From Candidatus Woesearchaeota archaeon (GTDB lineage Archaea; Nanobdellota; Nanobdellia; Pacearchaeales; GW2011-AR1): a DNA stretch of 64,000 nucleotides. Below the pieces are notes generated by a model. It did not search any database. It was given only the letters and a program-made list of their open reading frames with translations, and was not told where the DNA came from. Below are positions 26,400 to 58,503 of the stretch, piece by piece. The stretch lies in the NCBI GenBank assembly GCA_964372205.1, contig CAYJQB010000001.1, forward strand, positions 13,180 through 77,179, in the 5' to 3' direction. The first letter of the stretch is position 1; each line of letters begins with the position of its first letter. Position numbers and translations under genes: made by a program.

Positions 26400-26400
26400 T

Positions 26401-29423: not shown

Positions 29424-30995
29424 TTGAAAGTGGAAGGCAAAGAATCTACGGAGCTAAATCGTTCTTTAAAGATTTTAGTAAGTGCTTCTTTTATTGTTGT
29501 AATCACAACAATCCTATCAAAGATACTAACTTATCTTTACAGAATAATAATAGCAAGAAATTATACTCCTGAAACTTACGGAGTGTATTCTCTTAGTTTG
29601 ATGGTTGTGGGATGGATTACCGTTCTTGCAGGGCTTGGGTTCGCAGGCGGTCTCTCCAGATATATCCCCTATTACAGGGGCAAAAATGAAGAATACAAGT
29701 CTTCAGTCTTAGTTAGAAAGATAAGTCTGCTTCTTCTAATTTCTGGAATACTAGGCATGTTTATCATGCTGGCATTAAGCGGATTTATAGCAAATAATTT
29801 GTTTCATGCCCCAGAATTAGAGTCCCTTTTAATGATATTTAGCGTAGCTATTCCATTTACAGTTCTAGCCGGAGTCTTTTTTACAGTTTTAAGATCTTAT
29901 GAAAAAATTGGGTGGCTATCTTTCATAGTTAATATCCTGCAGAACTCTGTAAAGATTCTAGTTTTGATAGCCTTAATATTACTAGGGTTTGGTGCGAAAT
30001 CCATAGCATTCTCATACGTTGCAGGAATTGCAATTGCACTAACTGTAGCGTATATGGTATCCAGAAGAAAAGTTTCTATCCTCTTCAGAAAACAGGACAA
30101 AAAAAGTTCAAGCGCCAAAGACAAGAATCTCATGAAGCCCCTAATCTCTTATTCCTGGCCACTAATAATTTTCGGCTTCATGTCCTCTATTCTTAGTTGG
30201 ACTGATACTTTTATGATTGGACTCTTAAGTACAACAGAAAATGTGGGTTTCTACAACGCAGCACTCCCGATAGCTTTGCTTATTACAATGTCTACTGATC
30301 TTTTCAGGCAGACTCTGCTTCCATTGATAACAAAAGAATATGGCAAAAAAAATATGCAAGCAGTGAAGTCTATAAGCAAGCAAGTAACAAAGTGGCTGTT
30401 AATTGCAGCAATACCGATATTTACAGCAATTTACTTATTCCCAGAAGAGGCTATCCGAATAATTTTCGGCCCAGAGTATCTTCCTTCGACAGATGCTCTG
30501 AAAGTTTTATCAGTAGGATTTTTTGTAACTTCTGTTTTCTTCGTTTCTCCAGAAATACTCTTGATGAAAGGAAAATCCAAACTTATTTTAGCAAATACTC
30601 TAGTGGTAGTTCTGTTAAATCTGATATTGAATTATTTTATGATAAACCTTTATGGTATAACCGGCGCAGCAATTTCAACTTCAATTTCTCTGATTCTTCT
30701 AAGCTTTTTGTTCACTTATCAATCTTGGAAAGTGTCATCTATATTTGTGATGAAAAAAGACATGCTGAATGTTCTTTTATCAGGAGTTTTATCTTTCGTT
30801 CTGACATTGGTAGCTTCTTTATATTTCGGAAAAGACTTATTCGGGGCACTCGCAAGCGGAACAGTATTCATAGTAGCTTACCCACTAGCTCTTTATCTGA
30901 CAAAGTCTATAGACCTCAACGACTATTCTATTTTAGCGGCGATAAAGGGCAAGGCTTTGAGAAAAGTCCATAACAAAATAGACCTCATCGATTAA
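29424..30995 (+). CDS. Oligo/polysaccharide flippase (Wzx-like, MOP superfamily), TTG start
   Basis: About 14 transmembrane segments with PST-family topology. It is the first gene of the glycan island. Confidence 0.7.
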   Translation: MKVEGKESTELNRSLKILVSASFIVVITTILSKILTYLYRIIIARNYTPETYGVYSLSLMVVGWITVLAGLGFAGGLSRYIPYYRGKNEEYKSSVLVRKISLLLLISGILGMFIMLALSGFIANNLFHAPELESLLMIFSVAIPFTVLAGVFFTVLRSYEKIGWLSFIVNILQNSVKILVLIALILLGFGAKSIAFSYVAGIAIALTVAYMVSRRKVSILFRKQDKKSSSAKDKNLMKPLISYSWPLIIFGFMSSILSWTDTFMIGLLSTTENVGFYNAALPIALLITMSTDLFRQTLLPLITKEYGKKNMQAVKSISKQVTKWLLIAAIPIFTAIYLFPEEAIRIIFGPEYLPSTDALKVLSVGFFVTSVFFVSPEILLMKGKSKLILANTLVVVLLNLILNYFMINLYGITGAAISTSISLILLSFLFTYQSWKVSSIFVMKKDMLNVLLSGVLSFVLTLVASLYFGKDLFGALASGTVFIVAYPLALYLTKSIDLNDYSILAAIKGKALRKVHNKIDLID

Positions 30996-32160
30996 TTAGA
31001 CTTATAACTGCGGAGTATATCTCTTCAACACTTATTGAGTTCATGTGGACTTTCTGACAGATATCACAGGCATATCTTCTGCAATCATGAGCCTTGTTTT
31101 CATGATAAATATTGATATTCTTCTTATCGGGATCTATCGGTCCTATCCTCTTAGGAGAATCAGAACTATAGATTATCACAGCAGGGGTGCCCACTTGTGA
31201 AGTTATATGTGCAGTAGAAGTGTCAAGAGTAATAGTGGCATTGGCTCGTTTCAAGATAGATGCAAAAGACTCTATATCTGGGGTTTTACCAACCGCATAA
31301 ACCACCTGGTTTTTATTTTTGACTAAATCATATATCTTATTTGTAATTTGAGATTCGGAACCGACTCCAGAGATAATCACTTTTACATCGAGGCTCTCAG
31401 TTAAACTATCTATCAGTTTTGCCCACCTTTCTTCAGGCCAGAGGTGTGCAGGAGTCTTTTCTTCTTTCAGAGCATTTACTATTTTACCTGCACACGGATG
31501 GACTACAATAACCTTCTCTCCTTTTTTGACATGCTTCTTGAAGAACTTATTTGCAAAATCTTCGCTTTTTTTAGTGAAGTAGAAAGAAGGGCGATCAACT
31601 TCAAGTTTTAATAATCGGAAAAGAGCGATAAGAGTCTCTGGACCGTTTGCTCTAACAGGGTAAGGTCTTCGACTTGCTAAAATAGGAAAAATCTGTTTTC
31701 TAATTTTTCCCGGTTTGGCTCTAAATGAGTCTACTGATGAGATGTATTTTATTTTCGACAAAGCTAAAAATAATTCTCTATCTAAAATCTTTCTCTGCCT
31801 AGAAGCATCCATCAAGATAACGGCATCAATTTGCTTATCATTTATTAAATTCTTTGCCTGTCCCAATGTAACTGCCTCTATTTCTTGATTTTTTACAAAT
31901 TTTCTATTTTTTTCTAATGTCAATAAATAGAAACTTATCTGATACTTTTTAAGAACTGAATTCATAATTCCTATTACATTATAAATATCTCCTACCGCCC
32001 CGCCACAAATTACTAAAATTTTATTTATCTCTCCAGACTTCACCCTTGTAAATTTTCTAGGATCTAATAAAATCCAAAAAAGATAGTAGCTGAAATTTGA
32101 GAATTCTTTTATAACGTTTCCCGTGAATATTTTCAATTTTTCAAATAGAGATATATTCAT
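30985..32160 (-). CDS. Glycosyltransferase family 9 (heptosyltransferase-like)
   Basis: ILVICGGAVGDIYN is a GT9 N-terminal motif. The C-terminal DTSTAHITSQVGTPAVIIYS is the hallmark GT9 donor-binding motif. Confidence 0.6.
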   Translation of the reverse strand: MNISLFEKLKIFTGNVIKEFSNFSYYLFWILLDPRKFTRVKSGEINKILVICGGAVGDIYNVIGIMNSVLKKYQISFYLLTLEKNRKFVKNQEIEAVTLGQAKNLINDKQIDAVILMDASRQRKILDRELFLALSKIKYISSVDSFRAKPGKIRKQIFPILASRRPYPVRANGPETLIALFRLLKLEVDRPSFYFTKKSEDFANKFFKKHVKKGEKVIVVHPCAGKIVNALKEEKTPAHLWPEERWAKLIDSLTESLDVKVIISGVGSESQITNKIYDLVKNKNQVVYAVGKTPDIESFASILKRANATITLDTSTAHITSQVGTPAVIIYSSDSPKRIGPIDPDKKNINIYHENKAHDCRRYACDICQKVHMNSISVEEIYSAVISLINR

Positions 32161-32235
32161 TAATATCTCTCAAAATGTCTCTTTATTAAAGTTTGCAATC
32201 AGCAGCTAAGGAATATTTATAAATTAAAGAAAAGA

Positions 32236-32829
32236 GTGATAAAAATGAATAAACTAAAATTTAGAACCTCCCCAAACAGCTACTTGAAAAAATTTTTCAA
32301 TATAAGAGTAGAAAGAGTATTTCCTAGGGGTTTTGAAAGATTTGGAGTTTCAGGAAACAATCTTATAGGAATAGAAATAGGAGTTTTCGAAGGAGAACAC
32401 GCAGCCTCTCTCATAAAAAATCTCAATATCAAAAAACTATATCTTATAGATCCCTATGTTATTCCCAACAAAGAGGACATATTTTGGACTAAAAAAATCT
32501 TGAATGCAAAAAAAAATGTCCAAAATAAATTCAGGAAGGACAAGAGAATAAGAGTCATCCACAAATATTCAACAGATGCAGTTAAGGACATAGAGGAGTT
32601 GGTAGACTTCATATATATCGATGGAAACCACGAATATTTAGCAGTAAGAGAAGATATTAACAATTATTGGAAAATTCTAAAAAAAGGAGGAGTCTTAGGA
32701 GGACACGACGTCCACAATGCAGTCCGAGCTCACAATAGAGGGGTTATGAAAGCAGTCTTTGAATTTGCCCTTTTAAAAAAGGTAGAAGTTATAATTGAAG
32801 GCGAAGACTGGTGGATAAAAAAACCTTAA
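32236..32829 (+). CDS. Class I SAM-dependent methyltransferase (CmcI/Methyltransf_24-like)
   Basis: IGIEIGVFEGEHAASL and FIYIDGNHEYLAVREDINNYWKILKKGGVLGGHD. Confidence 0.55.
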   Translation: MIKMNKLKFRTSPNSYLKKFFNIRVERVFPRGFERFGVSGNNLIGIEIGVFEGEHAASLIKNLNIKKLYLIDPYVIPNKEDIFWTKKILNAKKNVQNKFRKDKRIRVIHKYSTDAVKDIEELVDFIYIDGNHEYLAVREDINNYWKILKKGGVLGGHDVHNAVRAHNRGVMKAVFEFALLKKVEVIIEGEDWWIKKP

Positions 32830-33485
32830 ATTTGGTTTCTTGAATTTGGGCTTGCAAAGACAATCATCGTATCTTTGAATTTATCGCCCGCCAAACTAAC
32901 AACTCCCTTGACTATTTTTCTCCTAAGGGGATCTTTCCTTAAGAAAGGGTAATATGCATATTTGTATTTTTTAACTATGAACCCTGATCTTTCTAGAAGC
33001 ACAGTCATAACTTCAGGTGCAAACCAAACTGTGTGCTCTCTCGCTTTACTGCCATGAGGATCATTAGTATACTTGTAAACCATTTCAAACCATCTAAATG
33101 CACAAAAGGCGTTAGGCGTGGTAAGGATAAGCAAACCGTCTTTTCTAAGGTGCTTCTTACATCTTTCCAAAAATAATCCTGGATTACTGAGGTGTTCCAC
33201 AAGCTCTCCAGCAAATATCACATCAAATTTTTTTTTGAATGAAAATGATTCTGCATTTTGGCAAGTAACATCATAACCTTGTTTGTTCAAGCTTTCCACA
33301 GCCGATTTTAAGATATCTATGCCAGAGACTGATTTTGCATGCTCTTTCAAAAAATCATGAACCCAAATTCGACTCTTATGTTTTCTTTTTAAATCATGAT
33401 CAACACAGCCCACATCAAGCACATCTTTTCCAACTACATAAGGATAAATTGCTTTCAAAACTTCGTCTCTCGAAAAATTTATCAT
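32826..33485 (-). CDS. Class I SAM-dependent methyltransferase
   Basis: Motif I is VLDVGCVDH and the post-II motif is FAGELVEHL. Confidence 0.65.
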   Translation of the reverse strand: MINFSRDEVLKAIYPYVVGKDVLDVGCVDHDLKRKHKSRIWVHDFLKEHAKSVSGIDILKSAVESLNKQGYDVTCQNAESFSFKKKFDVIFAGELVEHLSNPGLFLERCKKHLRKDGLLILTTPNAFCAFRWFEMVYKYTNDPHGSKAREHTVWFAPEVMTVLLERSGFIVKKYKYAYYPFLRKDPLRRKIVKGVVSLAGDKFKDTMIVFASPNSRNQI

Positions 33486-34258
33486 ATCTTAGCTATTTCG
33501 ATCCCCTTTTTTAACTTTTTCGCTTTTTTCTCTTTGAGTCGGACAATGAATGAATTACCATACCAACCAAATTTTTGAAATTCAATAGACTCAAATTTAG
33601 GATTTTTTGTGAGCCATTCTTTAAACGCAAGCTGTTCTCCTCTATTGGGGTCCCCTCTAAAGCAAAACCAGTCATCAAACACTAGGATAGCTCCGTTCTG
33701 CAAAAGGTCATTTACAAAATCAAGAACAAACACTGCCGATTCATAAAGATCGGAATCTATATACACAAGCGCAGCTTTTTCGATTTTCAGCTTCTTCTTA
33801 GTTTCAATATTAAGGGTTTTATCATACCACCCCTTAACAAGATGAACTTTATTCATATTAACTTTACTTTTTTCCAGTCTCCTAACAAAACTTTTATATG
33901 GAAAAGCATAATCTCCCTCATTAAAATGCTTAAATCCTTCGTTATCAAGCTTATTTTTAACAGGAGGGATGCCTTCAAAACTGTCAAATCCAATAAATCT
34001 CATTGCCTTTAGATTTTTGCCCATAGTTTGAGCTATGTGGTACGAAGATATGAATGTATTTCCTTCAGAAACTCCAAATTCAAGATAATCTCCCTCTATT
34101 TTATTGCTCCTCAAATAGTCCATCGCTTTAAATAAAAATCTTTCTCTTTCGGAATAAGCAAAAAATTCGTTGAAATGAGAAAATAGTGGTCTAAACCTAA
34201 AAGGTTTGAATTTTAAATCTTTATAGGTCTTCTTTAGATTGGATTTGAAAACAGGCAT
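33482..34258 (-). CDS. TylF/MycF-family sugar O-methyltransferase
   Basis: LVYIDSDLYESAVFVLDFVNDLLQNGAILVFDDW is the TylF/macrocin-O-methyltransferase core. Confidence 0.6.
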   Translation of the reverse strand: MPVFKSNLKKTYKDLKFKPFRFRPLFSHFNEFFAYSERERFLFKAMDYLRSNKIEGDYLEFGVSEGNTFISSYHIAQTMGKNLKAMRFIGFDSFEGIPPVKNKLDNEGFKHFNEGDYAFPYKSFVRRLEKSKVNMNKVHLVKGWYDKTLNIETKKKLKIEKAALVYIDSDLYESAVFVLDFVNDLLQNGAILVFDDWFCFRGDPNRGEQLAFKEWLTKNPKFESIEFQKFGWYGNSFIVRLKEKKAKKLKKGIEIAKI

Positions 34259-34276
34259 TTTAATTTGCTATTTTAT

Positions 34277-35257
34277 TCATTTATAAAATTTTTCCCCAGT
34301 TCCTTTATAAAAATTTACCATCTTTGAAATCCCTTCATCTATGAAAATTTTCGGTTTCCAATTTAGTACCTTTCTTGCTTTGTCAATATCAAGATAGAAG
34401 CTATCTTCAAAATCAAAAGCATCTGAATTTTTCTCTATCTTAATCGAGCCTCTGCCAACCTTCATGATTATTTTCGTGGCTAGAGAAATCAAAGCAACTG
34501 GCTCACCTGAGCCAAAATTAAACACTTCTTTCCCAGCATTCTCACAAATTCCGGAAATAGTCAGGGCATCAATAAGATCTGCTAAATATATAAAATCTCT
34601 AATTCTATTGCTTTTTTCACGAACTAACAAATCATTATCCTCCAGCGCTCTCTTGATAAACCAATTCATTAAACCATCAGAGGGCGAGACTATTTTATTT
34701 TTCTCACCATAAACTATTCCAATTCTTGCTATTACGAAATCCAATCCAGATTCTTGATAAAGTTTTTCAGATTCCTTTTTGATATGTCCATAAACATTGA
34801 ATGGATTTAGTTCCGATTTTTCGTTAATTGGACTTTTTTCAGGCTCAACCAACCCATAAACTAGTCTTGAACTAGTATAAACAATTCTCACCGAAGGATT
34901 ATATTTTTTACATCCTTCAATTAACTTCTCTCTGTTTACAACAAACCTTGAAACATTTTCAGATTCCGAGCTGTTTCTATCAACTGATTCTGCCAAATCA
35001 AAAATCAAGTTTTTACCAAATATTTCTTCAAGGAGGACATCTTCCGAAAATTCAAGGACTCTAATCTTATTTCTTATATCCGATATATTTGATAACTTTT
35101 CTAAACTTCTGGTGATTATGGTGATATTCGCACCAAGAGAAACTAATAATCGAGCAAGATTACTCCCAATAAATCCAAGTCCTCCAATCAGAAGAACATT
35201 TTTTCCAAGGTAATTTTGTCCAAGGTTCATGACAACTGGGATAAGTTCTCCCACCAA
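34277..35257 (-). CDS. NAD-dependent epimerase/dehydratase (SDR family)
   Basis: An N-terminal Rossmann fold (LLIGGLGFIGSNLARLL) and a YxxxK-type active site. Confidence 0.75.
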   Translation of the reverse strand: MVGELIPVVMNLGQNYLGKNVLLIGGLGFIGSNLARLLVSLGANITIITRSLEKLSNISDIRNKIRVLEFSEDVLLEEIFGKNLIFDLAESVDRNSSESENVSRFVVNREKLIEGCKKYNPSVRIVYTSSRLVYGLVEPEKSPINEKSELNPFNVYGHIKKESEKLYQESGLDFVIARIGIVYGEKNKIVSPSDGLMNWFIKRALEDNDLLVREKSNRIRDFIYLADLIDALTISGICENAGKEVFNFGSGEPVALISLATKIIMKVGRGSIKIEKNSDAFDFEDSFYLDIDKARKVLNWKPKIFIDEGISKMVNFYKGTGEKFYK

Positions 35258-36189: not shown

Positions 36190-36211
36190 CAATATTGGGT
36201 TAAATCTGACA

Positions 36212-37471: not shown

Positions 37472-37503
37472 TTTTTTTCAAAATTTAGACATTATTTAAA
37501 AGT

Positions 37504-38622: not shown

Positions 38623-38656
38623 TTTTATATAATCCTCCAAGGTTAATACTTTTAAA

Positions 38657-38727
38657 GCTGCTGTGGTGTAACGGTAACACGCTTCCTTCACGTGGAAGAA
38701 CTCGAGGTTCAATTCCTTGCGGCGGCA
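38657..38727 (+). tRNA. tRNA-Val(CAC)
   Basis: By manual folding, the acceptor stem is GCTGCTG/CGGCGGC (two G-U pairs) with discriminator A. D stem GTGT/ACAC. Anticodon stem CTTCC/GGAAG flanks loop TTCACGT. T-loop TTCAATT. Confidence 0.7.
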
Positions 38728-39416: not shown

Positions 39417-39450
39417 AACCTTGCTAAAAAAAAGAGCTTAAAATAGTTTG

Positions 39451-41547: not shown

Positions 41548-41548
41548 A

Positions 41549-42217: not shown

Positions 42218-42505
42218 TTAAAGTTTTTTAAGATATTCTTTATGGCTTCGAGTATAATAAAAAACATAAATCCCTATATATATTAGGGTAGTGATTATGG
42301 CGATAGTATACTTAATCACAAGGGGCGATTGAGCTATCAGAACTGCGTAAATCAGTGCAATCATATTGGCCAGCAAGAAAATAACAAAAAGAAACAGACT
42401 GACTCCACTTGTATCTTTGGATTTTAAAGTTTTAATCATTTGAGGAATTATCATAATTGAGAATAAGAATGTGGCAATCCACCCTAAAATCTGTGCAAGA
42501 TCCAT
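42218..42505 (-). CDS. SemiSWEET / PQ-loop small sugar transporter-like protein (95 aa, three transmembrane segments)
   Basis: The first transmembrane segment carries a PQ motif (IIPQMIKTLKSK). Size and topology match bacterial SemiSWEETs or the lipid-A-disaccharide-synthase N-terminal (LAB_N) fold. Confidence 0.45.
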   Translation of the reverse strand: MDLAQILGWIATFLFSIMIIPQMIKTLKSKDTSGVSLFLFVIFLLANMIALIYAVLIAQSPLVIKYTIAIITTLIYIGIYVFYYTRSHKEYLKKL

Positions 42506-50168: not shown

Positions 50169-50241
50169 GATTTTAAAGAAAGACTAACTTTTTTAAATAT
50201 ATATACAGTGGTTTTATATATCTAAAAAATCAAGTGAAATC

Positions 50242-52107: not shown

Positions 52108-52811
52108 AGATAAGTATAATCGTGCCGGTTTACAATGAAGAAAAAACGCTAGCAAAAATCTTAGACAAGCTAGTTTCAGTAGACCTAAATCTCAAAAAGG
52201 AGATTCTTATAATAGATGACGGCAGCAAAGACAATACTAAGAAAGTCGCATTAGATTATATAAAAAAGAAAAAACAAAAGAATATCGAATTCAAATTCTA
52301 TTTGAAAAAAAATGGTGGAAAAGGGTCTGCAGTTAGGCAAGGCATAAAACTCGCAACAGGAGACATAATAACAATACAGGATGCTGATTTAGAGTACAAC
52401 CCTGAAGATTATAAACTTTTGATAACGCCAATCATTAATGGAACTGCCTCAGTAGTTTATGGTTCAAGAATGTTAAATAAGAACAACGAAATTGGTTATT
52501 TTGTGTATTATCTTGGAAATAAGTTTCTAACTCTTTTAACTAAACTATTATACTTTTCGGGGATTACCGATATGGAAACTTGCTATAAGGTGTTCCGAGC
52601 AGACATAATTAAGAGCATACCTCTAAAATCAAATAAATTTGATATAGAGCCAGAAATAACTGCTAAAATTCTAAGGAAGGGGGTAAAAATAAAAGAAATC
52701 CCCATTTCCTACAGCCCAAGGACAATAGAGGAAGGAAAGAAGATTAATTGGAAAGATGGTTTACATGCCATATTGGTTCTACTTAAATGGAGATTTGCAA
52801 AATGGAACTAG
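52104..52811 (+). CDS. Polyprenyl/dolichyl-phosphate sugar synthase (DPM1-like GT2)
   Basis: KISIIVPVYNEEKTL...ILIIDDGSKDNT...GKGSAV...QDADL. Confidence 0.75.
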   Translation: MKISIIVPVYNEEKTLAKILDKLVSVDLNLKKEILIIDDGSKDNTKKVALDYIKKKKQKNIEFKFYLKKNGGKGSAVRQGIKLATGDIITIQDADLEYNPEDYKLLITPIINGTASVVYGSRMLNKNNEIGYFVYYLGNKFLTLLTKLLYFSGITDMETCYKVFRADIIKSIPLKSNKFDIEPEITAKILRKGVKIKEIPISYSPRTIEEGKKINWKDGLHAILVLLKWRFAKWN

Positions 52812-53617
52812 ATATCCTAAAAAAGATAACTCACAGATCCAAAATATTATTATCTTTAGTCAAAGATTCATTCTATATTTGGAAATTTTCAGACTGGATT
52901 CAAGTATGGTTCACAAATAGACGAAAGGAAATTACAATCAAGGGGCTTAAGTTCCAGATTAGAAATCACAATTATTTATCCAAAGTCACAGATATAGCAA
53001 TGATTTTCGAAATAATTCATTTTAACCACTACGGAATATGTGACATAAATCCAAAAGACATAGTAATAGACATAGGAGCTCACATAGGCAGCTTTACTCT
53101 ATTAGCATCAAAAAAGGCCAACAAAGGCAAAGTTCTTTCGTATGAACCTTCTCAGGAATCTTTTAAATTATTAAAAGAAAATGTTAAAATAAACAACGGA
53201 AATAATATTATTCTTCATAACGAAGCGGTAGGAAAAAATTCTGGAGAAGGATATCTCTTCCAGCATAAAAACAACGCAGAAAATTCCCTATATAAAAAAT
53301 CCAATAATAAAAAAAAGATTCATTTAACAACTCTTGCAGAAATATTTCGCAAATATCAATTAAACAAGTGCGATGTGCTAAAATTAGACTGTGAAGGAGC
53401 AGAATATGATATTCTCTTCTCTTCGGGAAACCAATTATCCAAGGTTAAAAAAATCATATTAGAATATCACGAACCAACATACTTTGGAATCGATAATAAA
53501 TATAGCGTAAATTCCTTAATGGAGTTCCTCAAAAAAAAAGGTTTCAAGGTTAATGTTACTAAAGACACTCATTACCAAGGAATAATTTACGCACAACAGA
53601 CTAATCTCTTAAGATGA
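52787..53617 (+). CDS. FkbM-family methyltransferase
   Basis: IDIGAHIGSFTLLAS...VLSYEPSQESFKLLKENV matches the FkbM domain. Confidence 0.65.
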   Translation: MEICKMELDILKKITHRSKILLSLVKDSFYIWKFSDWIQVWFTNRRKEITIKGLKFQIRNHNYLSKVTDIAMIFEIIHFNHYGICDINPKDIVIDIGAHIGSFTLLASKKANKGKVLSYEPSQESFKLLKENVKINNGNNIILHNEAVGKNSGEGYLFQHKNNAENSLYKKSNNKKKIHLTTLAEIFRKYQLNKCDVLKLDCEGAEYDILFSSGNQLSKVKKIILEYHEPTYFGIDNKYSVNSLMEFLKKKGFKVNVTKDTHYQGIIYAQQTNLLR

Positions 53618-54851
53618 CTATAGTCCCCCAAAGAAAAGCCGCAGAAGCAGTAACGAATGCTATAGAAAACTGGAAGAGATTAGCAGAGAAATAGTAAAGC
53701 AAGAATACTTCCAAAATCAAGAAGACAGGAAGGTACTGATAATTCTTAACCTTTCCCAAGGATAATTTATATAACAAAACAAGATTGTTTATAGAAAGAA
53801 ATACAAATCCAATTGAAAGATAGAATAAAATAGATGAGGACTCTAGAATAACTTTCCCTGAAAAAATCCATACTATAAATGATGGAAAGAAAAAGAACAA
53901 AACGAGTCCAATAAACAGCGGCACAATAAGGAGTCCGAATGCGTTGTAGAAAACACCTTCAGATTTATTTTTTTTCAGTTCATTCTCAGAGGATATTGGA
54001 AACATGGCTCTACTTATGGGCTGAGTGCCAAGAAAGATTGTTTTTGCAAGTATTGATGCAATAGAGTATGCACCTGCCAGCCCATCGGAGAACACTATCT
54101 TTGCAATTATAACATCGATACTATAGAATGCTAATATTGAAAAGATGATTATAAAAGAAGGCAAGGAATATTTCTCCTGCTTTTTGATATGTCCCGACTT
54201 TGAACTCATTATATCCCCAAGGCTGACAAATGAAAGTGCCAATGCAGTTCCTGTGCCAATTAATGTGCCAATTATTGCCCCATAAACCCCCCATCCTAAG
54301 AATACCAAAATAAGAGATATCACAAGTTTAAATGCAGATTCAGAAACCATGTTTGCTCCTAAAGCGCGAAATCTCTTCTTGCCTTGGATTATTCCCCTAG
54401 TCAATGGTAAGGAAAATGCTAAAAATATCATCAACCCATTCAAAAGCATCAAGGGATAGTCTATCTTCATTAAATCAGATATCTTTATGGTAGCAATAGC
54501 ATAAAGCATGAAAATAACGAGAGAGTAAACGAAAAATTTCTTTGAAGATGCCTTTAGCATGCCCTTTATTTTACTTTTATTTTGTTCACCAGAAGAAAAC
54601 TTAGTAAAAACTAACTGGATAGATTCAGTAAATATCCCGAGCATGTAAATAATAGCATATAATGCAGAAAGTGTTCCGAATTCTTCAACTCCAAGAAGTC
54701 TAGCCATTGAGAAATGGAACATGAAATTTAGAAAATTGTAAATCCCAAAGAATATCAATAAAACTACACTTCCTCTGATTAATATTTTGTCCAACTTCAT
54801 TTTACAAAAAATGCAAATACTATTGCAATTATAACAACTTGGAACAGCCAA
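53601..54851 (-). CDS. Oligosaccharide flippase / polysaccharide biosynthesis membrane protein (MOP superfamily)
   Basis: 12-14 transmembrane segments with Wzx-like organisation. Confidence 0.55.
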   Translation of the reverse strand: MAVPSCYNCNSICIFCKMKLDKILIRGSVVLLIFFGIYNFLNFMFHFSMARLLGVEEFGTLSALYAIIYMLGIFTESIQLVFTKFSSGEQNKSKIKGMLKASSKKFFVYSLVIFMLYAIATIKISDLMKIDYPLMLLNGLMIFLAFSLPLTRGIIQGKKRFRALGANMVSESAFKLVISLILVFLGWGVYGAIIGTLIGTGTALALSFVSLGDIMSSKSGHIKKQEKYSLPSFIIIFSILAFYSIDVIIAKIVFSDGLAGAYSIASILAKTIFLGTQPISRAMFPISSENELKKNKSEGVFYNAFGLLIVPLFIGLVLFFFFPSFIVWIFSGKVILESSSILFYLSIGFVFLSINNLVLLYKLSLGKVKNYQYLPVFLILEVFLLYYFSANLFQFSIAFVTASAAFLWGTIVILRD

Positions 54852-55792
54852 ATAGAATAAACAACTCTTCTCTCCGTTGGTTTAATTCCAAACTTTTTCA
54901 TCAACAGGATTGAAAGATGATTAAGACTATAGATTTTAGAATACTTAAGATCCAGCGTATCTTCTCCAACAGGCTTCGCGAAAGACTGTTTAACTAGCCC
55001 GCCTCTAAGCTTCAGAATAGTTTCAATTATGTAAGGTATAAAAAGCAAAATTGCTACCTTCTCAAAGTTGCCCAAGATAGCAAATATTGCTATGAGGCCT
55101 CCAAGAGGATAAGTCAAAGTATCGCCAGGGAATACTTGTGCAGGATAGATGTTATAAAAAAGAAACGCTAACAAGGCGGCGACTATAATAAATCCTATCA
55201 AAGCAAGCCAAGAGTTTCCAGTGGTATAAGCAACTAAAGAGAGCGCTGAAATCAAAATGATTCCTTGGCCAGCTTCCAGTCCATTGAATCCTGCAAGAAA
55301 GTTGAAAGTTGTAGATGTTGCAATTACACCGATAGGGATTAAGATTAAAGGATATAACAGCCCAGAATTTATTTCTCCAATAAAAGGGACAGAAAAAGCG
55401 CTATGTCCTGCGTTTATGACCATCAAGGGAACTGCAGCAAAAAAGCACAGAGCTATTCTAGTTCTTCTTCTTAATCCTATTTTCCATCCGAGAGAGTCAT
55501 CTATAAGTCCTATCATTGCCAATATCAACAGACTTGTGGTAATCGCAAAAATCTCAATCAAATTAGAGCTAGAGTCAAATAAGAATTGGACTATCGCCAC
55601 ATATATGAGTATTCCTAGAATAAATGCTGTAACCGTCACAATTCCTCCAGTCTCAGCAACTTGAGTTTCTCGGTATTTGTTCATGTCTTTTCCTACAAAA
55701 CCGAATTTTGTAGCCTTCTTTATCCAGAATGGCATAGCAAGAAGACTAATTAAAAAGCTTATCAAAATAGGGAGCAGAAGCACCCAGTTCAT
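54797..55792 (-). CDS. aglH: UDP-HexNAc:dolichyl-phosphate HexNAc-1-phosphate transferase (AglH/WecA/MraY family)
   Basis: A polytopic membrane protein with the characteristic N-terminus (LLAMPFWIKKATKFGFVGKDMNKY) and cytoplasmic-loop motifs of the GPT family. Confidence 0.75.
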   Translation of the reverse strand: MNWVLLLPILISFLISLLAMPFWIKKATKFGFVGKDMNKYRETQVAETGGIVTVTAFILGILIYVAIVQFLFDSSSNLIEIFAITTSLLILAMIGLIDDSLGWKIGLRRRTRIALCFFAAVPLMVINAGHSAFSVPFIGEINSGLLYPLILIPIGVIATSTTFNFLAGFNGLEAGQGIILISALSLVAYTTGNSWLALIGFIIVAALLAFLFYNIYPAQVFPGDTLTYPLGGLIAIFAILGNFEKVAILLFIPYIIETILKLRGGLVKQSFAKPVGEDTLDLKYSKIYSLNHLSILLMKKFGIKPTERRVVYSIWLFQVVIIAIVFAFFVK

Positions 55793-58503
55793 TACGCGCT
55801 CCTTATCTCTTCAGGGTACTTTGTCTGAAGAAATTCTGCTCTGAACTTAACATCATTAGAATAATCAATCTCCCATATTTTTATGGGCCCTCTTGCTCCT
55901 TGGAAATAAACGAAATCTCCTACTTTCAAACCCGATTGGCTTTCTAATTGCTTTATAAGGAAATCTTTTTCTTCGTGAACTAAACTGAATCCTTCTACAT
56001 CCTCTTCAAATAGATACAGCTTAGCAAATTGGCTGTGGATAGTTCTTTTACTGAGAAATATCATAGCTCCCGACTCATCATAATCCATTCCACCACTACT
56101 TTGAGATAATTGTGGGAAGATGAATGCACCAGCATCCAACCCCTCACCTAAATCATACATAGTTCCATTGAAATGGATATATCTTAATGGCAGATTATAT
56201 TGGGTTCCTCTGTAAACAAAAATCCCTTCTGCACTATCCACTTTCTGGTTCTCATCAAAACCAACTACAACTCCTCCTATGCCTGCAATATTATTATTGC
56301 TATAATCTCCTTTAGATCCCGGCAAGAATATCTGAGTGCCATTTAGATTGTATGATAAATCTTCATCAAGGATGGTTCCTCCAAGATACAAGTATTTTGT
56401 AGAATTTTTGGCCTCAAATGTCCTAGACGAATCTTTCAAGAAAATACTCAAATAACTTGCCCTGTCATAATCTTTATCAGATCCTATCAGCGAGTATGCA
56501 GGATATTTACCTATGTCGCTAGAATCTATCAAGAAATGAGTAACATTATGAGCGTACAAAAATTCAAGAGCTGCCTTTTCATCATTTCCAGTCAAAGCAT
56601 ATCTTCCCATAAGATGATTCCAGTAGGATACAGAGTTTCCTCCATCAAGGACAGTAGCTCTTTCACCTATAGACTGTAACCAATATCCATAATCCCACCA
56701 ATGTGCAAAAACAGATTCTTGAGGAGTATTCTCTCTTACCCAAGCCATTGCTTTTTGCCATTGTTGATTATATGCAGACGGCACATAAGAGCTTGCTTGA
56801 GAAGCGGAAACTTGATAAAAGTAATATGCAGAGAATAGAGATGCAAAAAGGACTATAGCTGCAATTATTACCGAAGCAACTTTCTTCTGTTTCTGCTGAT
56901 TTACTTGTTGAATAAGACTCATCAAAAAGAAACCTACGACTATGCTTGCTGGGGGAACTAAGACCATTACAGTTCTTACTGCAGCCTTTGCAGAAATCAC
57001 TCCAAACAAAAAGAATACTATGAGGATGATTATTCCAATTCCAACTTTTTTGAACTCATCCATCCTTTGAGTTTTATAGTACTTATAATAATAAAATCCT
57101 ACTGCTCCTATCAGAACACCAAAGCCCAAAATATACAAACCGATACTAGCAAAATTCTCACCATTTAACAGGCTACTTGAGGAGTATCTCCCGAAAATAA
57201 AGCTTAGAAGGAAAATCACATAAGCTGAAGTCATTATTAATTGCTCTTTCTTTTTCATGAAGTTCAATGTCAAATACACCAAAAAGATTGAGCCTACGAA
57301 AAATAGCCAGAAATAAACAGGTATTCCATTATAAATTGGGCCAAAACTACTAACCCATTCTTGGAAGTATGGTTGTCTATTTTCAGCAACCGTCTGAATA
57401 AGCCGAGTAGTAGCTGGCTTTATGAACACATCTTTAATGTCAATTATTCTAGATATCAGTTGGGAAAAACCATAAGCTACACTAAACAATACTGCTCCTA
57501 AAAATCCAGAGATTATGGTGGAGGTTACTTCCTTAGGAAATTTCTTAATTGTTGGATTATCAAAATATCTTTTTAGTTTTGTTTCAAAGAACACGTAATT
57601 GAGTGCCATGGTGAAGAGCACCCCGAAAGCGATTGCAGTTGCTGTTGAAGCAAAAATACTTCCAAAAATATATTTGTGAGTCATAACCATTATAGAGGAT
57701 GAAGTTATCAGCCAAAGACCATAAACTATTGTTTTTTCCAGGTTGACACTTCTTAGGATAAATGCTATAAACACTGCAGGTGCAATAACTAGGAAGATAT
57801 ACACATAACCTCCCCATATAGATGCCATCCCAGCTGTAGCCAATCCAGAAAGAATAGCAAATACATATTTGGCATATTTCTTCTCAGACTCCCAGCCAGA
57901 GATAAACAGATATAAAGCCATAAACAGGAAGAAAAATGCCGCGGACTCTTTTTCAGGTATGCCTGCAATAGTTCTAGGTAGGAGAGCAGGAATTATTGAA
58001 AGGAATAAAGCCGAGATAAGTCCGACACCGTTTGCGAACTTAACTCCATATTTTTTTAGAAAAATTCTTCTTGCAAAAAGAAAGAAAGCTATTACTGTTA
58101 TTGCAAAAAAGAAAACCGGATACAACACTGCTGATTGAGTCACAGACTCACTTCCAAAAAGAGATATTACATTGTGAAACCACGCAATCATATAAGGGTG
58201 AAGAAGATATTCATGACCAGTCTCAAAACCTAACGGAACATACCTCATGGTGTCTAAAGCCATCAAACTTCCATTTTCAACAATATATTTTGCCCATCTT
58301 AGAAAAAGAAATGGATCTAAATCCGGCCCCAGCGTCCAGGTGCCTGTAGTTATATCCTTTAACCCATAAAGATTCAATGTCCTTATTCTTACCGCTAAAA
58401 AGACTATAACTGCCAGCAAGACATAAGTAAAAAGATGATATTTTTCTTTAATAAACTTCAAAAACTTCCTTTTTCTTTCAAGAATATTTCTGTCTTCATC
58501 CAT
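55792..58503 (-). CDS. aglB: Archaeal oligosaccharyltransferase AglB (STT3 homolog)
   Basis: The diagnostic WWDYGYW motif (AHWWDYGYWLQSIGE). It has a 13-transmembrane N-terminal domain and a C-terminal globular domain, at 903 aa. Confidence 0.9.
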   Translation of the reverse strand: MDEDRNILERKRKFLKFIKEKYHLFTYVLLAVIVFLAVRIRTLNLYGLKDITTGTWTLGPDLDPFLFLRWAKYIVENGSLMALDTMRYVPLGFETGHEYLLHPYMIAWFHNVISLFGSESVTQSAVLYPVFFFAITVIAFFLFARRIFLKKYGVKFANGVGLISALFLSIIPALLPRTIAGIPEKESAAFFFLFMALYLFISGWESEKKYAKYVFAILSGLATAGMASIWGGYVYIFLVIAPAVFIAFILRSVNLEKTIVYGLWLITSSSIMVMTHKYIFGSIFASTATAIAFGVLFTMALNYVFFETKLKRYFDNPTIKKFPKEVTSTIISGFLGAVLFSVAYGFSQLISRIIDIKDVFIKPATTRLIQTVAENRQPYFQEWVSSFGPIYNGIPVYFWLFFVGSIFLVYLTLNFMKKKEQLIMTSAYVIFLLSFIFGRYSSSSLLNGENFASIGLYILGFGVLIGAVGFYYYKYYKTQRMDEFKKVGIGIIILIVFFLFGVISAKAAVRTVMVLVPPASIVVGFFLMSLIQQVNQQKQKKVASVIIAAIVLFASLFSAYYFYQVSASQASSYVPSAYNQQWQKAMAWVRENTPQESVFAHWWDYGYWLQSIGERATVLDGGNSVSYWNHLMGRYALTGNDEKAALEFLYAHNVTHFLIDSSDIGKYPAYSLIGSDKDYDRASYLSIFLKDSSRTFEAKNSTKYLYLGGTILDEDLSYNLNGTQIFLPGSKGDYSNNNIAGIGGVVVGFDENQKVDSAEGIFVYRGTQYNLPLRYIHFNGTMYDLGEGLDAGAFIFPQLSQSSGGMDYDESGAMIFLSKRTIHSQFAKLYLFEEDVEGFSLVHEEKDFLIKQLESQSGLKVGDFVYFQGARGPIKIWEIDYSNDVKFRAEFLQTKYPEEIRSA

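Follow-up and report, generated by a model that had tools for sequence, protein, structure and literature searches.

The region 29424–58503 of the window (the whole stretch of DNA analysed, 64 kb) is interpreted here as a protein N-glycosylation and surface-glycan locus anchored by the oligosaccharyltransferase AglB, with the steps and modules proposed below; on the gene families identified, this reading is given a probability of about 0.7. The host is an uncultured small-genome DPANN archaeon of the Pacearchaeota/Woesearchaeota type. Every one of the best 80 relatives of its AglB belongs to a MAG labelled as Pacearchaeota, Woesearchaeota or Nanoarchaeota, or simply as 'archaeon', and archaeal ribosomal genes lie downstream of the island. 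The island holds 28 protein genes and one tRNA gene without gaps, nearly all of the genes being glycan-related, and its ends fall exactly on the starts of two genes, one for a MOP flippase (29424) and, on the minus strand, aglB (58503). Its GC content (0.343) is slightly below that of the flanks (0.366 and 0.368), and all of the genes tested against a sister strain are under purifying selection (dN/dS 0.03–0.16). By Pfam, the glycosyltransferases comprise four GT4, four GT2, one GT9 and two GT-C enzymes. There are six methyltransferases: TylF, Methyltransf_24 and FkbM types and three generic SAM types. A previous sequence-only reading had described an AglB/AglH-anchored glycan locus rich in methyltransferases (three of TylF/CmcI/FkbM type and three generic) and had named AglB with WWDYG, AglH, flippases, GT2 and GT4 transferases and RfbB; the profile scores agree with it on all of these. 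Family assignments given below are above Pfam or NCBIfam curated cut-offs unless marked as weaker, and strands are denoted + and −.

Conserved core and proposed pathway

AglB (55792–58503, −; PF02516, STT3, 55.1 bits; PF21436, STT3-PglB core domain, 27 bits) contains WWDYG at residues 602–606, D61-x-D63 and DIGK near residue 665, with about 13 predicted TM helices, and full-length relatives were found in at least 80 species-level genomes. The AglH-type polyprenol-phosphate GlcNAc-1-P transferase (54797–55792, −; PF00953, 108.6 bits) is encoded next to aglB in 60 of the 80 relatives' loci, and SpoIIM adjoins AglB in 52 of them. Two further genes belong to the core: MOP-family flippase 2 (53601–54851, −; PF01943, 53.2 bits), which is present in 46 of 86 loci and adjoins AglH in 34, and the weakly ArnC/AglJ-like GT2_260 (49386–50168, −; PF00535, 69.2 bits; ArnC match E 3e-9, AglJ match E 3e-8), which is present in 43 of 86. 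The core AglB–AglH–flippase 2–GT2_260 borders SpoIIM–prefoldin–EMC3–SecY, an arrangement kept across relatives. The locus is modular, with a conserved core and exchangeable modules outward of it.

The pathway proposed here combines these family assignments with the Haloferax/Halobacterium paradigm. AglH would prime dolichol phosphate at the cytoplasmic face, and the lipid-linked glycan would be extended by the soluble GT2, GT4 and GT9 enzymes. Soluble methyltransferases and a soluble sulfotransferase would decorate it on the cytoplasmic side, where this step is placed because SAM and PAPS are cytoplasmic. The decorated glycan would be translocated by a MOP flippase and transferred to Asn by AglB. 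At the outer face, at least one pair of a DPMS-like GT2 and a GT-C enzyme (GT2_235 and PMT2_621) would add a sugar from Dol-P-sugar, and the second GT-C enzyme (PMT552) may do likewise.

GT2_235 (52104–52811, +) is of the polyprenol-phosphate sugar synthase type (DPMS/AglJ-like); in the PDB it best matches 5MLZ, the Dol-P-Man synthase of Pyrococcus (E 5.5e-18), followed by ArnC and GtrB, and it matches AglJ with E 1e-34. It is found side by side with the PMT_2/ArnT-like PMT2_621 (50242–52107, +; PF13231, 65.2 bits; ∼11 TM helices) in 11 of 14 loci. The PMT-like PMT552 (45660–47318, +; PF02366, 30.6 bits versus a cut-off of 22.7; ∼10 TM helices) has a homologue next to that of GT2_291 (44750–45625, +; PF00535, 75.9 bits; one C-terminal TM helix) in seven of 14 loci. 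However, GT2_291 showed no similarity to DPMS, GtrB or ArnC, and its best PDB match is GalT1, which is not a Dol-P-sugar synthase. Thus, of the two complete synthase–GT-C pairs claimed previously, GT2_235 with PMT2_621 stands as the only clear predicted one. Together with the MshA/BshA-like GT4_379 (43614–44753, +; PF00534, 113.4 bits; PF13439, 104 bits), GT2_291 and PMT552 form a trio that recurs in six loci (L022, L033, L085, L086, L087 and L092). The same part of the island encodes a GT4 (47315–48463, −; PF00534, 131.9 bits), a GT2 (48460–49389, −; PF00535, 82.8 bits) and an FkbM-family methyltransferase (52787–53617, +; PF05050, 82.5 bits; TIGR01444, 111 bits versus 37.7).

Exchangeable modules

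At the other end of the island lies MOP-family flippase 1 (29424–30995, +; Wzx/MurJ-like, ∼12 TM helices; PF01943, 102.7 bits, with MatE and MurJ matches), homologues of which adjoin the sulfation module in L082, L084, L085 and L088. It is followed by a hypervariable 6-deoxyhexose, O-methylation and GT9 cassette (30985–38622), which is one exchangeable module. The cassette is far more diverged from the sister strain than the rest of the locus, which indicates allelic replacement. Its GT9 enzyme (30985–32160, −; PF01075, 61.1 bits versus a cut-off of 22) is divergent and heptosyltransferase-like; it matches 3TOV, WaaC and WaaF in the PDB (E 6e-4 to 3e-3), its motif reads LDTSTAHIT and it scores under every NCBIfam heptosyltransferase cut-off. 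The family and the DTSTAHI motif had been recognized in the sequence-only reading, and the Pfam score bears out this assignment, but the supposed rarity of GT9 in archaea does not extend to this lineage, since GT9 genes recur in eight relatives' loci (L015, L026, L043, L068, L071, L082, L084 and L088). The cassette further encodes a CmcI/TylF-like Methyltransf_24 enzyme (32236–32829, +; PF13578, 58.1 bits), a generic class I SAM methyltransferase (32826–33485, −; PF13489 and PF08241), a TylF-type sugar O-methyltransferase (33482–34258, −; PF05711, 57.6 bits), an extended SDR (34277–35257, −; PF01370, 86.9 bits), which is a candidate nucleotide-sugar epimerase or 4-ketoreductase scoring under every NCBIfam equivalog cut-off, the dTDP-glucose 4,6-dehydratase RfbB (35227–36228, −; TIGR01181, 410.3 bits versus 365.1) and a WcaL-like GT4 (36212–37471, −; PF00534, 159 bits; TIGR04005, 238.9 bits, below cut-off). 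Its last gene, a GT4 (37504–38622, +; PF00534, 49.2 bits), is conserved as a companion to the Fem-like gene described below; homologues with 51–54% identity adjoin the latter in L085 and L087, and in L082 they are close to it. No RmlA, ADP-heptose or cytidylyltransferase genes were found in the 64-kb window.

A sulfotransferase, two Methyltransf_11 (MT11) enzymes, a divergent CDP-alcohol phosphotransferase and a single-domain Fem-type transferase make up a decoration module typical of the clade. The sulfotransferase (40822–41547, −; PF00685, 32.4 bits versus a cut-off of 22; 65 homologue clusters) is a soluble carbohydrate enzyme of the PAPS type with both PAPS-binding motifs intact (GRSGSSW and RNEKKRAES) and a PDB match to 3RNL (E 4e-5). 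A sulfotransferase with a PAPS-binding loop had been noted before, and structural homology bears out the enzyme: the best 50 Foldseek PDB matches of the AF2 model (pLDDT 89.8) are all PAPS sulfotransferases. One Methyltransf_11 enzyme (41549–42193, −; PF08241, 83.3 bits) is the conserved neighbour of the sulfotransferase, with homologues of 66–68% identity in L020, L082 and L085. The gene for the other, MT11_239 (39451–40170, −; PF08241, 87.8 bits), adjoins that of the CDP-alcohol phosphotransferase-fold membrane protein (CDP-AP-like; 40133–40780, −) in every locus having the latter (L020, L084, L086 and L092). This membrane protein had been called a CDP-alcohol phosphatidyltransferase; the fold is retained, but it is a divergent relative, scoring 17.4 bits for PF01066 (below the cut-off of 22) and missing the fourth Asp and second Gly of the family signature. 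The invariant residues are D66, D69, G70, A73 and D87, and the position of the fourth Asp is taken by His91. Each of the 26 best PDB matches of its AF2 model (pLDDT 77) is a CDP-alcohol phosphotransferase; TM-scores span 0.34–0.69 and exceed 0.6 for the best dozen. The predicted FemAB-like transferase (38709–39416, −; FemAB, 24.4 bits versus a cut-off of 24, a weaker assignment) is likewise a Fem-type (aminoacyl-tRNA-dependent) homologue, albeit with one GNAT domain and not a full FemAB. Its family profile matches the aminoacyl-tRNA-dependent peptide synthase 9WQW (E 4e-22) and FemX (1e-12), 23–24 of 30 members match FemAB or Acetyltransf_6, and K174 is invariant and F173 nearly so (≥90%). The gene set regarded as unusual in the sequence-only reading is thus present, but the sulfotransferase, Fem-like, CDP-AP-like, MT11 pair and GT9 genes recur in the clade.

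Three features had gone unmentioned in that reading: the pyruvate kinase gene discussed below, a gene for a 95-residue PQ-loop/SemiSWEET-like protein with three TM helices (42218–42505, −; PF04193, 46.7 bits versus 22; MtN3_slv, 28.5 bits), which is kept in the sister strain (dN/dS 0.12), and a tRNA-Val(CAC) gene inside the island (38657–38727, +; ARAGORN; Rfam tRNA, 56.9 bits). No att-like repeat was found in the window.

The relatives differ in how these modules are placed. L086 is collinear with the window over 38.7–55 kb, and the SecD–hyp118 boundary is common to the window and L085. Modules and AglB core form one uninterrupted stretch in the window, in L086 and in L092; in L082, L084 and L088 aglB is over 10 kb away from the decoration module.

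Pyruvate kinase and its probable link to PAPS supply

A pyruvate kinase barrel without the C-terminal domain (PK329; 42580–43569, +; PF00224, 239.5 bits, no PK_C domain) is encoded in the island; its gene and the sulfotransferase operon are divergently transcribed. PK329 keeps the catalytic Lys, Glu, Asp and Thr, and reads DTEGSQIR where canonical enzymes have DTKGPEIR; D[TS]EGxQ[IVL]R occurs in 118 of 120 members of the kinase family. It is 51–54% identical to the kinase domain of fusions with ATP sulfurylase (ATPS) and, in some, APS kinase (APSK). Fusions confirmed by Pfam in relatives are PK+PUA_2+ATPS+APSK (917 residues), PK+PUA_2+ATPS (736 and 737 residues) and PK+APSK (522 residues), and every one lies within ∼100 bases of a sulfotransferase gene. 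By sequence comparison, PK329 is a member of this sulfation-linked subfamily. Stand-alone kinases are close to sulfotransferases in L086 and L087 (beside or one gene off) and in L092; in the window and L092 up to three genes intervene. L086 also encodes an equivalog-level CysQ. In 11 of the 12 lineages examined, bacteria included, the kinase has a sulfotransferase, ATPS or APSK as its neighbour, and the link to sulfation holds in three loci outside Pacearchaeota (the bacterial L089/90 and L091, and L094). The most likely role of PK329 would be to use PEP to convert the ADP made by APS kinase to ATP, driving PAPS formation for the sulfotransferase.

Alternative readings

A less probable but serious alternative is that the 29 kb combine at least two distinct pathways. 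In that case the AglB-transferred N-glycan would be built by the AglB-proximal part alone (∼47–58.5 kb), and a second glycoconjugate by flippase 1 together with the cassette and the sulfation/decoration module. The second product could be another N-glycan (compare the low-salt pathway of Haloferax), a lipid-linked polysaccharide or an O-glycan whose synthesis uses the PMT-like GT-C enzyme. The presence of MOP flippases and GT-C enzymes in twos would suit such a division, as would the distance between aglB and the decoration module in L082, L084 and L088, the match of PMT552 to the protein O-mannosyltransferase family and the loci in which flippase-1 homologues accompany the sulfotransferase/kinase module (L082, L084, L085 and L088), where the 20 kb covered contained no aglB or aglH. 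Furthermore, there is a precedent in Haloferax, the two pathways of which each have their own flippase-like protein (PMC3871713). However, AglH is the sole priming phosphoglycosyltransferase in the island, the contiguity of the modules with the AglB core in three loci favours a single pathway, and a second flippase-like protein can translocate Dol-P-sugar within one pathway, as with AglR.

The remaining alternatives concern single modules. It is unlikely that the CDP-AP-like, MT11_239 and Fem-like trio remodels the head groups of membrane lipids instead of the glycan, joining a polar alcohol to a CDP-activated lipid that is then aminoacylated and methylated. Tandem-GNAT enzymes such as MprF are known to carry out tRNA-dependent aminoacylation of lipids, the CDP-AP-like fold matches the lipid head-group synthases PIPS, PgsA and PSS, one homologue is annotated at source as phosphatidylglycerophosphate synthase and both MT11 proteins weakly match the phospholipid N-methyltransferase PmtA. 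However, these PmtA matches fall far short of cut-off and are no stronger than those to dozens of further methyltransferase models. Among the best fold matches, AF2299 and IPCT-DIPPS, is an enzyme acting on soluble CDP-inositol, the fourth catalytic Asp is replaced and the trio always occurs within glycan clusters, beside glycosyltransferases and the sulfotransferase. Slightly less likely again is that sulfation is defunct in this strain, the sulfotransferase being a relic after loss of the ATPS and APSK parts of an ancestral fusion. No ATPS, APSK or CysQ gene was found in the 64-kb window, architectures in the family include the triple fusion, partial fusions and the kinase by itself, and in L085 a short APS-kinase-like remnant follows the stop codon of the PK–ATPS gene. 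Yet the absence covers only 64 kb of the genome, the sulfotransferase and PK329 each have a dN/dS of 0.05 between the sister strains, which marks strong purifying selection, the PAPS-binding motifs are intact and the syntenic L086, also kinase-only, retains three sulfotransferases and CysQ. The least probable reading is that PK329 is the glycolytic enzyme of the cell, placed in the island by chance with no role in sulfation. It does have the catalytic residues expected of an active pyruvate kinase, the window offers it no ATPS or APSK to serve and sulfur genes are missing from the neighbourhood of one homologue (L093); against this stand the four fusions, the gene neighbourhoods in nearly all lineages, the noncanonical motif and the lack of the regulatory domain throughout the subfamily.

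Implications

AglB-anchored glycosylation clusters of this type are already known, and the glycan made by this one is uncharacterized, as the sequence-only reading had also held. A link between this kinase and sulfate activation was not found described in the literature searched; on the fusions and gene neighbourhoods, PK329 probably supports PAPS supply. The locus is not a one-off island but a conserved, modular feature of the clade.

Gene content and type of the locus

The glycan locus (29424-58503) is densely filled by 28 protein genes and a tRNA gene. Pfam and NCBIfam models agreed with almost all of the calls made by eye in the sequence-only reading, including AglB with its WWDYG motif, AglH, the flippases, the GT2 and GT4 transferases and RfbB, as well as three sugar-type methyltransferases (TylF, Methyltransf_24 and FkbM) and three generic SAM methyltransferases. 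According to Pfam, there are two MOP-family flippases, four GT4 and four GT2 transferases, and two GT-C enzymes, PMT and PMT_2. RfbB reaches the equivalog level, with 410 bits for TIGR01181 (cut-off 365), and family models give a second SDR enzyme beside this call. Absent from the earlier reading were a 95-residue PQ-loop/SemiSWEET-like gene (42218-42505, minus strand; PF04193, 46.7 bits), a pyruvate kinase barrel gene (42580-43569, plus strand) and tRNA-Val(CAC) (38657-38727, plus strand).

AglB matches PF02516 (STT3) with 55.1 bits and PF21436 (STT3/PglB core domain) with 27 bits, and carries WWDYG at residues 602-606, the EL1 DxD as D61xD63 and DIGK near residue 665, with about 13 predicted transmembrane helices. 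The gene for the AglH-type GlcNAc-1-P transferase (PF00953, 108.6 bits) overlaps the aglB stop codon and is adjoined by a MOP flippase gene, so that the priming transferase and a flippase candidate cluster with aglB. Judged by its gene families and their clustering, the locus is a predicted AglB-based archaeal N-glycosylation cluster.

The contig that encodes AglB, from an ENA metagenome, is 246 kb long, and identical proteins are carried by a 660-kb contig, the longest with these genes. Directly beyond aglB lie archaeal ribosomal protein genes and genes for SecY, an EMC3/TMCO1-family protein, prefoldin and SpoIIM. More than 575 relatives of AglB came from a scan limited to one genome per species; the best 80 of these, which were used here, are 42-55% identical and nearly all full length, and their MAG labels are Pacearchaeota, Woesearchaeota, Nanoarchaeota or just 'archaeon', with no other label. 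The named homologues of the sulfotransferase are also Pacearchaeota or Nanoarchaeota. From these relatives it follows that the host is an uncultured DPANN archaeon.

Sulfotransferase and associated pyruvate kinase

A sulfotransferase with a PAPS-binding loop had been proposed at 40822-41547, and both its motifs and its fold bear this out. The protein matches PF00685 with 32.4 bits (cut-off 22) and contains GRSGSSW at residues 11-17 (5'-PSB) and RNEKKRAES at residues 98-106 (3'-PB); across 39 homologues, R12 and R98 are nearly invariant and S106 is invariant. An AF2 model using these 39 homologues gave a pLDDT of 89.8 and a pTM of 0.87, and the top 50 Foldseek matches in the PDB were all PAPS-dependent sulfotransferases, with 3RNL as the best (E 1e-8), followed by heparan-sulfate 3-O-sulfotransferases with TM-scores near 0.57. 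Homologues fall into 65 clusters at 38-75% identity (47-75% save the weakest).

The 64-kb window contains no ATP sulfurylase (ATPS), APS kinase (APSK) or CysQ gene, the first two having been sought by tblastn, which also found no ATPS or APSK remnants after the kinase gene or anywhere else in the window. In four related loci (L082, L084, L085 and L088), ATPS and/or APSK are present as kinase fusions beside the orthologous sulfotransferase, and a further locus, L086, has three sulfotransferases together with CysQ at the equivalog level (TIGR01331, 280 bits against 228.8).

The kinase in question matches PF00224 with 239.5 bits and has no match to PF02887 (PK_C); TIGR01064 gives 264.7 bits over model positions 3-337 of 476, below its equivalog cut-off of 306.4. 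Its alignment with the Geobacillus pyruvate kinase (PDB 2E28, E 9e-56) spans the barrel and cap domains over their full length; the KIE, RGDL, AT and ET motifs align with those of 2E28, and the enzyme retains the catalytic Lys (KIE), Glu, Asp (RGDL) and Thr. In contrast to canonical pyruvate kinases, which combine PF00224 and PF02887, the enzyme is without the C-terminal allosteric/tetramerisation domain, and has DTEGSQIR in place of DTKGPEIR and DRGDLS in place of ARGDLG. These substitutions recur among 120 kinase homologues (D[TS]EGxQ[IVL]R in 118 and DRGDLS in 116), and the C-terminal domain is absent in all members. By these sequence characters, the DTEGxQxR kinases can be regarded as a distinct pyruvate kinase subfamily.

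In every sulfotransferase-homologue locus examined, a kinase homologue is adjacent or one gene away. In L082/L083, two independent assemblies, Pfam resolves it as a 917-residue protein consisting of pyruvate kinase, PUA_2, ATP-sulfurylase and APS kinase domains; in L084 and L085 it is a protein of 737 and 736 residues, respectively, with pyruvate kinase, PUA_2 and ATP-sulfurylase domains; and in L088 a 522-residue protein joins pyruvate kinase to APS kinase. The window, L086, L087 and L092 (the sister strain) encode the kinase alone (328-329 residues). Over residues 1-325, the window kinase and the kinase domains of the fusions share 51-54% identity, and L085 is syntenic with the window, its fusion gene being followed by the same glycosyltransferase genes, namely GT4_379 (43614-44753, plus strand), GT2_291 (44750-45625, plus strand) and the GT-C gene PMT552 (45660-47318, plus strand). 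At positions 3492-3651 of L085, the match to the 917-residue triple fusion runs about 55 residues beyond the stop of the 736-residue gene, which suggests a decayed APSK start overlapped by the next GT4 gene and, hence, ongoing domain loss.

The association is also found outside archaea. On a Terriglobales contig a 329-residue kinase adjoins two or three sulfotransferases, and on an Anaerolineaceae chromosome an ATPS-APSK gene is followed by a gene for pyruvate kinase with PUA_2; judged from these gene neighbourhoods, the link between kinase and sulfation reaches into bacteria. In a blind check on two further kinase homologues, L094 was positive, with a 339-residue kinase gene overlapping an APSK gene and with ATPS, TauE and sulfatase genes nearby. 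The other, L093, was uninformative, having no sulfur genes in the 12 kb flanking the kinase homologue (6 kb on each side).

The reading put forward here is that the pyruvate kinases without the C-terminal domain are a dedicated component of sulfate activation and sulfation, with PEP driving the synthesis of PAPS. Its probability is placed a little short of one half (about 0.45). No such component, and no pyruvate kinase fusion with ATPS or APSK or link to sulfation, was found described in the literature searched. The window kinase would be the stand-alone form, coupling PEP to PAPS synthesis, and the most economical route would be for the kinase to turn the ADP from APS kinase back into ATP. 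APS kinase forms a dead-end enzyme-ADP-APS complex, and removal of ADP should therefore help PAPS synthesis. In the forms that lack APS kinase, phosphorylation could instead draw directly on PEP, but this is less likely, since the kinase co-occurs with APS kinase in two types of fusion. Bifunctional PAPS synthases, known from animals (PAPSS), bacteria and fungi, are ATPS-APSK fusions, and the 917-residue protein of the relatives holds the PUA_2, ATPS and APSK domains in the usual order. It differs from them in carrying a pyruvate kinase barrel (A and B domains, without the C domain) at its N-terminus, and the family differs further in its kinase-ATPS, kinase-APSK and kinase-alone versions.

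Glycosyltransferases and the PQ-loop protein

The protein encoded at 30985-32160 belongs to GT9, as had been claimed: PF01075 matches residues 193-361 with 61.1 bits (cut-off 22), the sequence LDTSTAHIT is present, and its PDB sequence matches are GT9 enzymes alone (3TOV, WaaC and WaaF; E 6e-4 to 3e-3). It shares the GT9 domain, the DTxxxH motif and the N-terminal G-D motif with WaaC and WaaF of the LPS core (CAZy GT9), but in an archaeon its acceptor cannot be lipid A-Kdo. All heptosyltransferase equivalogs (WaaC/WaaF/WaaQ) scored below cut-off, the best being TIGR02195 with 53.8 bits, far under 134.6, and no genes for ADP-heptose synthesis (GmhA, HldE or GmhB) were found in the 64-kb window. 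The family had been described as rare in archaea, which does not hold for this lineage, where GT9 genes also occur in L015, L026, L043, L068, L071, L082/L083, L084 and L088. In L082/L083 GT9 is fused to NUDIX and in L084 to GT2, the latter locus also containing an HldE-like gene (CTP_transf_like and PfkB). Orthology of the window GT9 with the other GT9 genes of the clade was considered and rejected, identity being about 24% with no tblastn match; by sequence, it represents a lineage separate from the other Pacearchaeota GT9 proteins.

Two pairs of a Dol-P-sugar synthase and a GT-C transferase had been proposed, one of which stands. GT2_235 (52104-52811, plus strand) matches Dol-P-Man synthase (5MLZ, E 5.5e-18), ArnC (6e-15) and GtrB (1e-11) in the PDB, and adjoins the PMT_2-type GT-C gene PMT2_621 (50242-52107, plus strand) in 11 of 14 loci. 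For the second pair, GT2_291 and PMT552, conserved adjacency (seven of 14 loci) is what was found: GT2_291 had no DPMS, ArnC or GtrB match in the PDB search, its best matches being GalT1-type GT2 enzymes. Neither GT-C protein had matches in single-sequence PDB searches. A further transferase, GT2_260 (49386-50168, minus strand), is transcribed divergently from PMT2_621 and shows weak similarity to ArnC and AglJ.

The PQ-loop gene lies between the sulfotransferase operon and the kinase gene, encodes three transmembrane segments and is under purifying selection; it was seen only in the window and the sister strain L092. The eukaryotic PQ-loop protein MPDU1 is needed for the use of Dol-P-sugars, and the archaeal protein might, speculatively, be a candidate factor for the translocation of a sugar or Dol-P-sugar.

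Fem-like and CDP-alcohol phosphatidyltransferase-like proteins

The FemAB-like transferase of the sequence-only reading proved to be a half-size Fem protein rather than a full two-domain FemAB. As a single sequence it scores 24.4 bits against PF02388 (cut-off 24). A full-library search gave a family of 200-235-residue proteins, with longer ones aligning over their C-terminal half. A profile of 30 members matched an aminoacyl-tRNA-dependent peptide synthase (9WQW, E 4e-22), Staphylococcus aureus FemX (6SNR, 3e-18), Weissella FemX (1NE9, 1e-12) and FemA (6e-8) in the PDB, in all cases over the C-terminal GNAT domain. Of these members, 23-24 match Pfam FemAB or Acetyltransf_6, and 23 match PF02388. 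In the family motif FK(E)xWGG the Lys is invariant and the Phe is present in at least 90% of rows, and this conserved FK motif points to putative use of an aminoacyl-tRNA donor. The two-GNAT architecture is lacking, as the 235-residue protein aligns to approximately 145-307 of the 311 residues of 9WQW and to 171-306 of FemX. FemX, FemA, FemB and 9WQW have two domains, with or without a coiled coil, in 310-430 residues, whereas the window family has one GNAT domain in 200-235 residues and the window gene sits in a glycan cluster rather than in peptidoglycan synthesis. From the profile matches, the protein is judged a real half-size member of the superfamily. A literature search on AglU with threonine found nothing relevant.

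The tRNA-Val(CAC) gene overlaps the 3' end of the Fem-like gene by 19 nt. A dedicated tRNA for the Fem-like enzyme was considered and rejected: none lies beside the Fem-like gene in L020, L082, L084 or L086-L088, and the one tRNA near it in L085 is an unrelated tRNA-Tyr, so that the pairing is not general. An integrative element at tRNA-Val was rejected as well, there being no repeat of the tRNA 3' end in the window, with the integrase at 15292-16107 lying 23 kb away.

The proposed CDP-alcohol phosphatidyltransferase (CDP-AP-like; 40133-40780, minus strand) has the six-helix fold, but its score and its signature fall short. PF01066 gave 17.4 bits, under the cut-off of 22, and a single-sequence PDB search gave E 3. 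Homologues were taken from the fetched loci, a word-index search having returned only five proteins. Compared with the signature D1xxD2GxxAR...GxxxD3xxxD4, residues D66, D69, G70, A73, K74 and D87 are kept, while Trp replaces the second Gly and His91 replaces D4; His91 is found in eight of nine aligned homologues. With an AF2 model (pLDDT 77), Foldseek ranks 1-26 were all CDP-alcohol phosphotransferases (AF2299, IPCT-DIPPS, PIPS, PgsA and PSS), with TM-scores above 0.6 for the best dozen (TMq up to 0.69, probability about 1.0), and about 0.35 lower down, though E reached only 7e-3. The predicted model thus has the family fold and the sequence fails the signature, and the protein is not filed as a proven member. 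The gene order CDP-AP-like, MT11_239 (the neighbouring gene, 39451-40170, minus strand) and Fem-like is kept in L084, L086 and L092; in L020 the first two are in order and are followed by an unidentified 212-residue ORF on the opposite strand. Possible roles of the trio are attachment of a phospho-alcohol and an amino acid or, alternatively, an action on lipids.

Conservation and variation of the locus

Synteny was surveyed by tblastn with all window proteins against 80 AglB-anchored loci. AglB and AglH are adjacent in 60 of the 80 relatives and AglB and SpoIIM in 52 loci; a flippase of the second type is present in 46 and a GT2_260-type transferase in 43. Median identity across these loci is 46% for AglB compared with 66% for SecY and 67% for SpoIIM, and the closest relative, L008, is 50% identical in AglB compared with 82% in SecY and 86% in SpoIIM. 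By these identities, AglB changes much faster than its housekeeping neighbours. AglB (55792-58503), AglH and the flippase were all observed to be far more diverged from their relatives than the adjacent SpoIIM/SecY region (58544-61677).

The trio GT4_379-GT2_291-PMT552 recurs in L022, L033, L085, L086, L087 and L092, L086 is collinear with the window over 38.7-55 kb, and the left boundary, SecD followed by a hypothetical 118-residue protein, is common to L085 and the window. This 118-residue multi-TM protein of unknown function (29049-29405, plus strand) is encoded directly after SecD, and its preservation at the same position in L085 makes it part of the flank, not of the island. Recurring modules combined with shared flanks and boundary argue for a fixed chromosomal site with variable content rather than a foreign island: the locus consists of a conserved core plus exchangeable outer modules.

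The sister strain L092 has the same gene order as the window. Over 38.3-50.1 kb, which takes in the kinase, sulfotransferase, Fem-like, CDP-AP-like and PQ-loop genes, the DNA is 89% identical and the proteins 87-95%, with dS 0.34-0.67 and dN/dS 0.05-0.16, and flippase 1 (29424-30995, plus strand) is 92% identical. The genes from GT9 through the GT4 transferase gene GT4_372 (30985-38622; GT4_372 itself at 37504-38622, plus strand) are only 56-82% identical, with dS 1.2-3.7 and dN/dS 0.03-0.16 for the three tested; PMT2_621 is likewise divergent (56%). Flippase 1 and GT4_372 are directly adjacent in L085, which places the cassette in a variable slot. Synonymous divergence of this degree combined with purifying selection indicates replacement by a distant allele, not decay, and the sequence comparison thus points to allelic replacement of the cassette 30985-38622, the same pattern as in serotype loci. 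Similarity to L092 jumps to 89% at 38298, about 360 bp from tRNA-Val(CAC); this tRNA is probably also present in L092, because the DNA match spans its position.

Bacterial O-antigen and capsule loci have conserved flanks and a conserved core around a central cassette that is exchanged between strains. The locus resembles them in the divergence of its cassette (dS 1.2-3.7 compared with 0.34-0.67 elsewhere in the locus) and in a GC content of 0.343, slightly below the flanks (0.366 and 0.368). Unlike in those loci, AglB is predicted to pass the product on to protein, and neither a Wzy polymerase nor a chain-length regulator is present in the locus.

Surroundings of the locus

A lone 5S rRNA gene (minus strand) beside a tRNA-Leu/Arg/Gly cluster was observed at 26123-26594, just upstream of SecF/SecD, with no 16S or 23S gene near it. 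Upstream of these RNA genes lies an exporter operon (21030-25084, minus strand) of two MacB/FtsX-type permeases, a 287-residue ORF with no match and an ABC ATPase. A tyrosine recombinase (15292-16107, plus strand; Phage_integrase, 164 bits) lies among small ORFs with no match at 13.6-16.1 kb and may be of the XerC/D kind or belong to a small integrated element. Approximately 8 kb at 3259-11153 consist mostly of short ORFs, and no Pfam match was found in any ORF tested there (3259-3999, 4317-4733, 4818-5543, 5848-6558, 9314-9736 and 10719-11153). Among the related loci, L082/L083 (1-5266) and L088 (14247-18725) contain the GT9-NUDIX fusion, B12-binding radical SAM and SPASM radical SAM enzymes, and QueC-like and nucleoside 2-deoxyribosyltransferase-like proteins, a set unexpected in a glycan locus.

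Discussion

The earlier observation of an unusual glycan locus is confirmed, and its interpretation is partly supported. Gene families, modular conservation, selective constraint and fusions are the directly supported elements; the order of reactions proposed here follows the Haloferax and Halobacterium paradigm (PMC3871713, PMC11980604). Dolichol phosphate would be primed by AglH and the glycan lengthened by the cytoplasmic GT2, GT4 and GT9 enzymes, one sugar probably being a 6-deoxyhexose made via RfbB and the SDR enzyme. The lipid-linked glycan would then be modified by the soluble methyltransferases and the soluble sulfotransferase, translocated by a MOP flippase and transferred to Asn by AglB. 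Finally, a Dol-P-sugar from GT2_235 would be used by PMT2_621 outside the membrane.

Two pathways are described in Haloferax volcanii, one with AglJ/G/I/E/D, AglP, AglR, AglS and AglB and a second with Agl5-Agl15, the latter including a separate flippase and sulfation by Agl7 (PMC3871713). As seen or predicted for the present locus, the genes are clustered round aglB, assembly is cytoplasmic on a lipid carrier, a methyltransferase decorates the glycan, and the last sugar involves a Dol-P-sugar synthase, a flippase-like protein and an outer-face transferase (PMC3871713). However, priming is here assigned to an AglH-type GlcNAc-1-P transferase and not only to an AglJ-type GT2, methyltransferases are far more numerous (six), the host is a DPANN archaeon, and the functions are predicted from genes; the GT9, Fem-like, CDP-AP-like, PQ-loop and pyruvate kinase proteins have no counterpart among the Agl proteins (PMC3871713). 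Halobacterium salinarum has the N-glycan sulfotransferases Agl30 (membrane) and Agl31 (soluble), likewise archaeal sulfotransferases in an N-glycosylation cluster when compared by description (PMC11980604). The window enzyme resembles Agl31 in being soluble and would be expected to modify the glycan while it is lipid-linked, whereas its type comes with a PAPS module that includes a kinase, a combination not described for Halobacterium.

As a kind, the locus is an AglB-anchored glycosylation cluster, a variant by virtue of its DPANN host, recurrent decoration module and kinase-linked sulfation. The literature searched yielded nothing relevant on DPANN sulfotransferases and no DPANN glycan or glycosylation pathway. 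The strongest new lead is the association of pyruvate kinase with PAPS synthesis, and this hypothesis extends beyond archaea, as the same association is found in bacteria. Sulfate activation is an energetically uphill step, and the link could explain what drives it in fermentative organisms.

Attachment to other microbes is the assumed way of life of DPANN cells, which makes surface chemistry central to their biology. Despite its very small genome, the lineage devotes about 28 genes to a decorated surface glycan and keeps them under purifying selection; the decorating module turns up repeatedly across the clade, and one cassette has been exchanged between near-identical strains, as in bacterial serotype loci. 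If the proposed role of the kinase in sulfation is true, this small-genome organism would invest in a sulfated, methylated and strain-variable surface glycan, which may mediate contact with a host cell.
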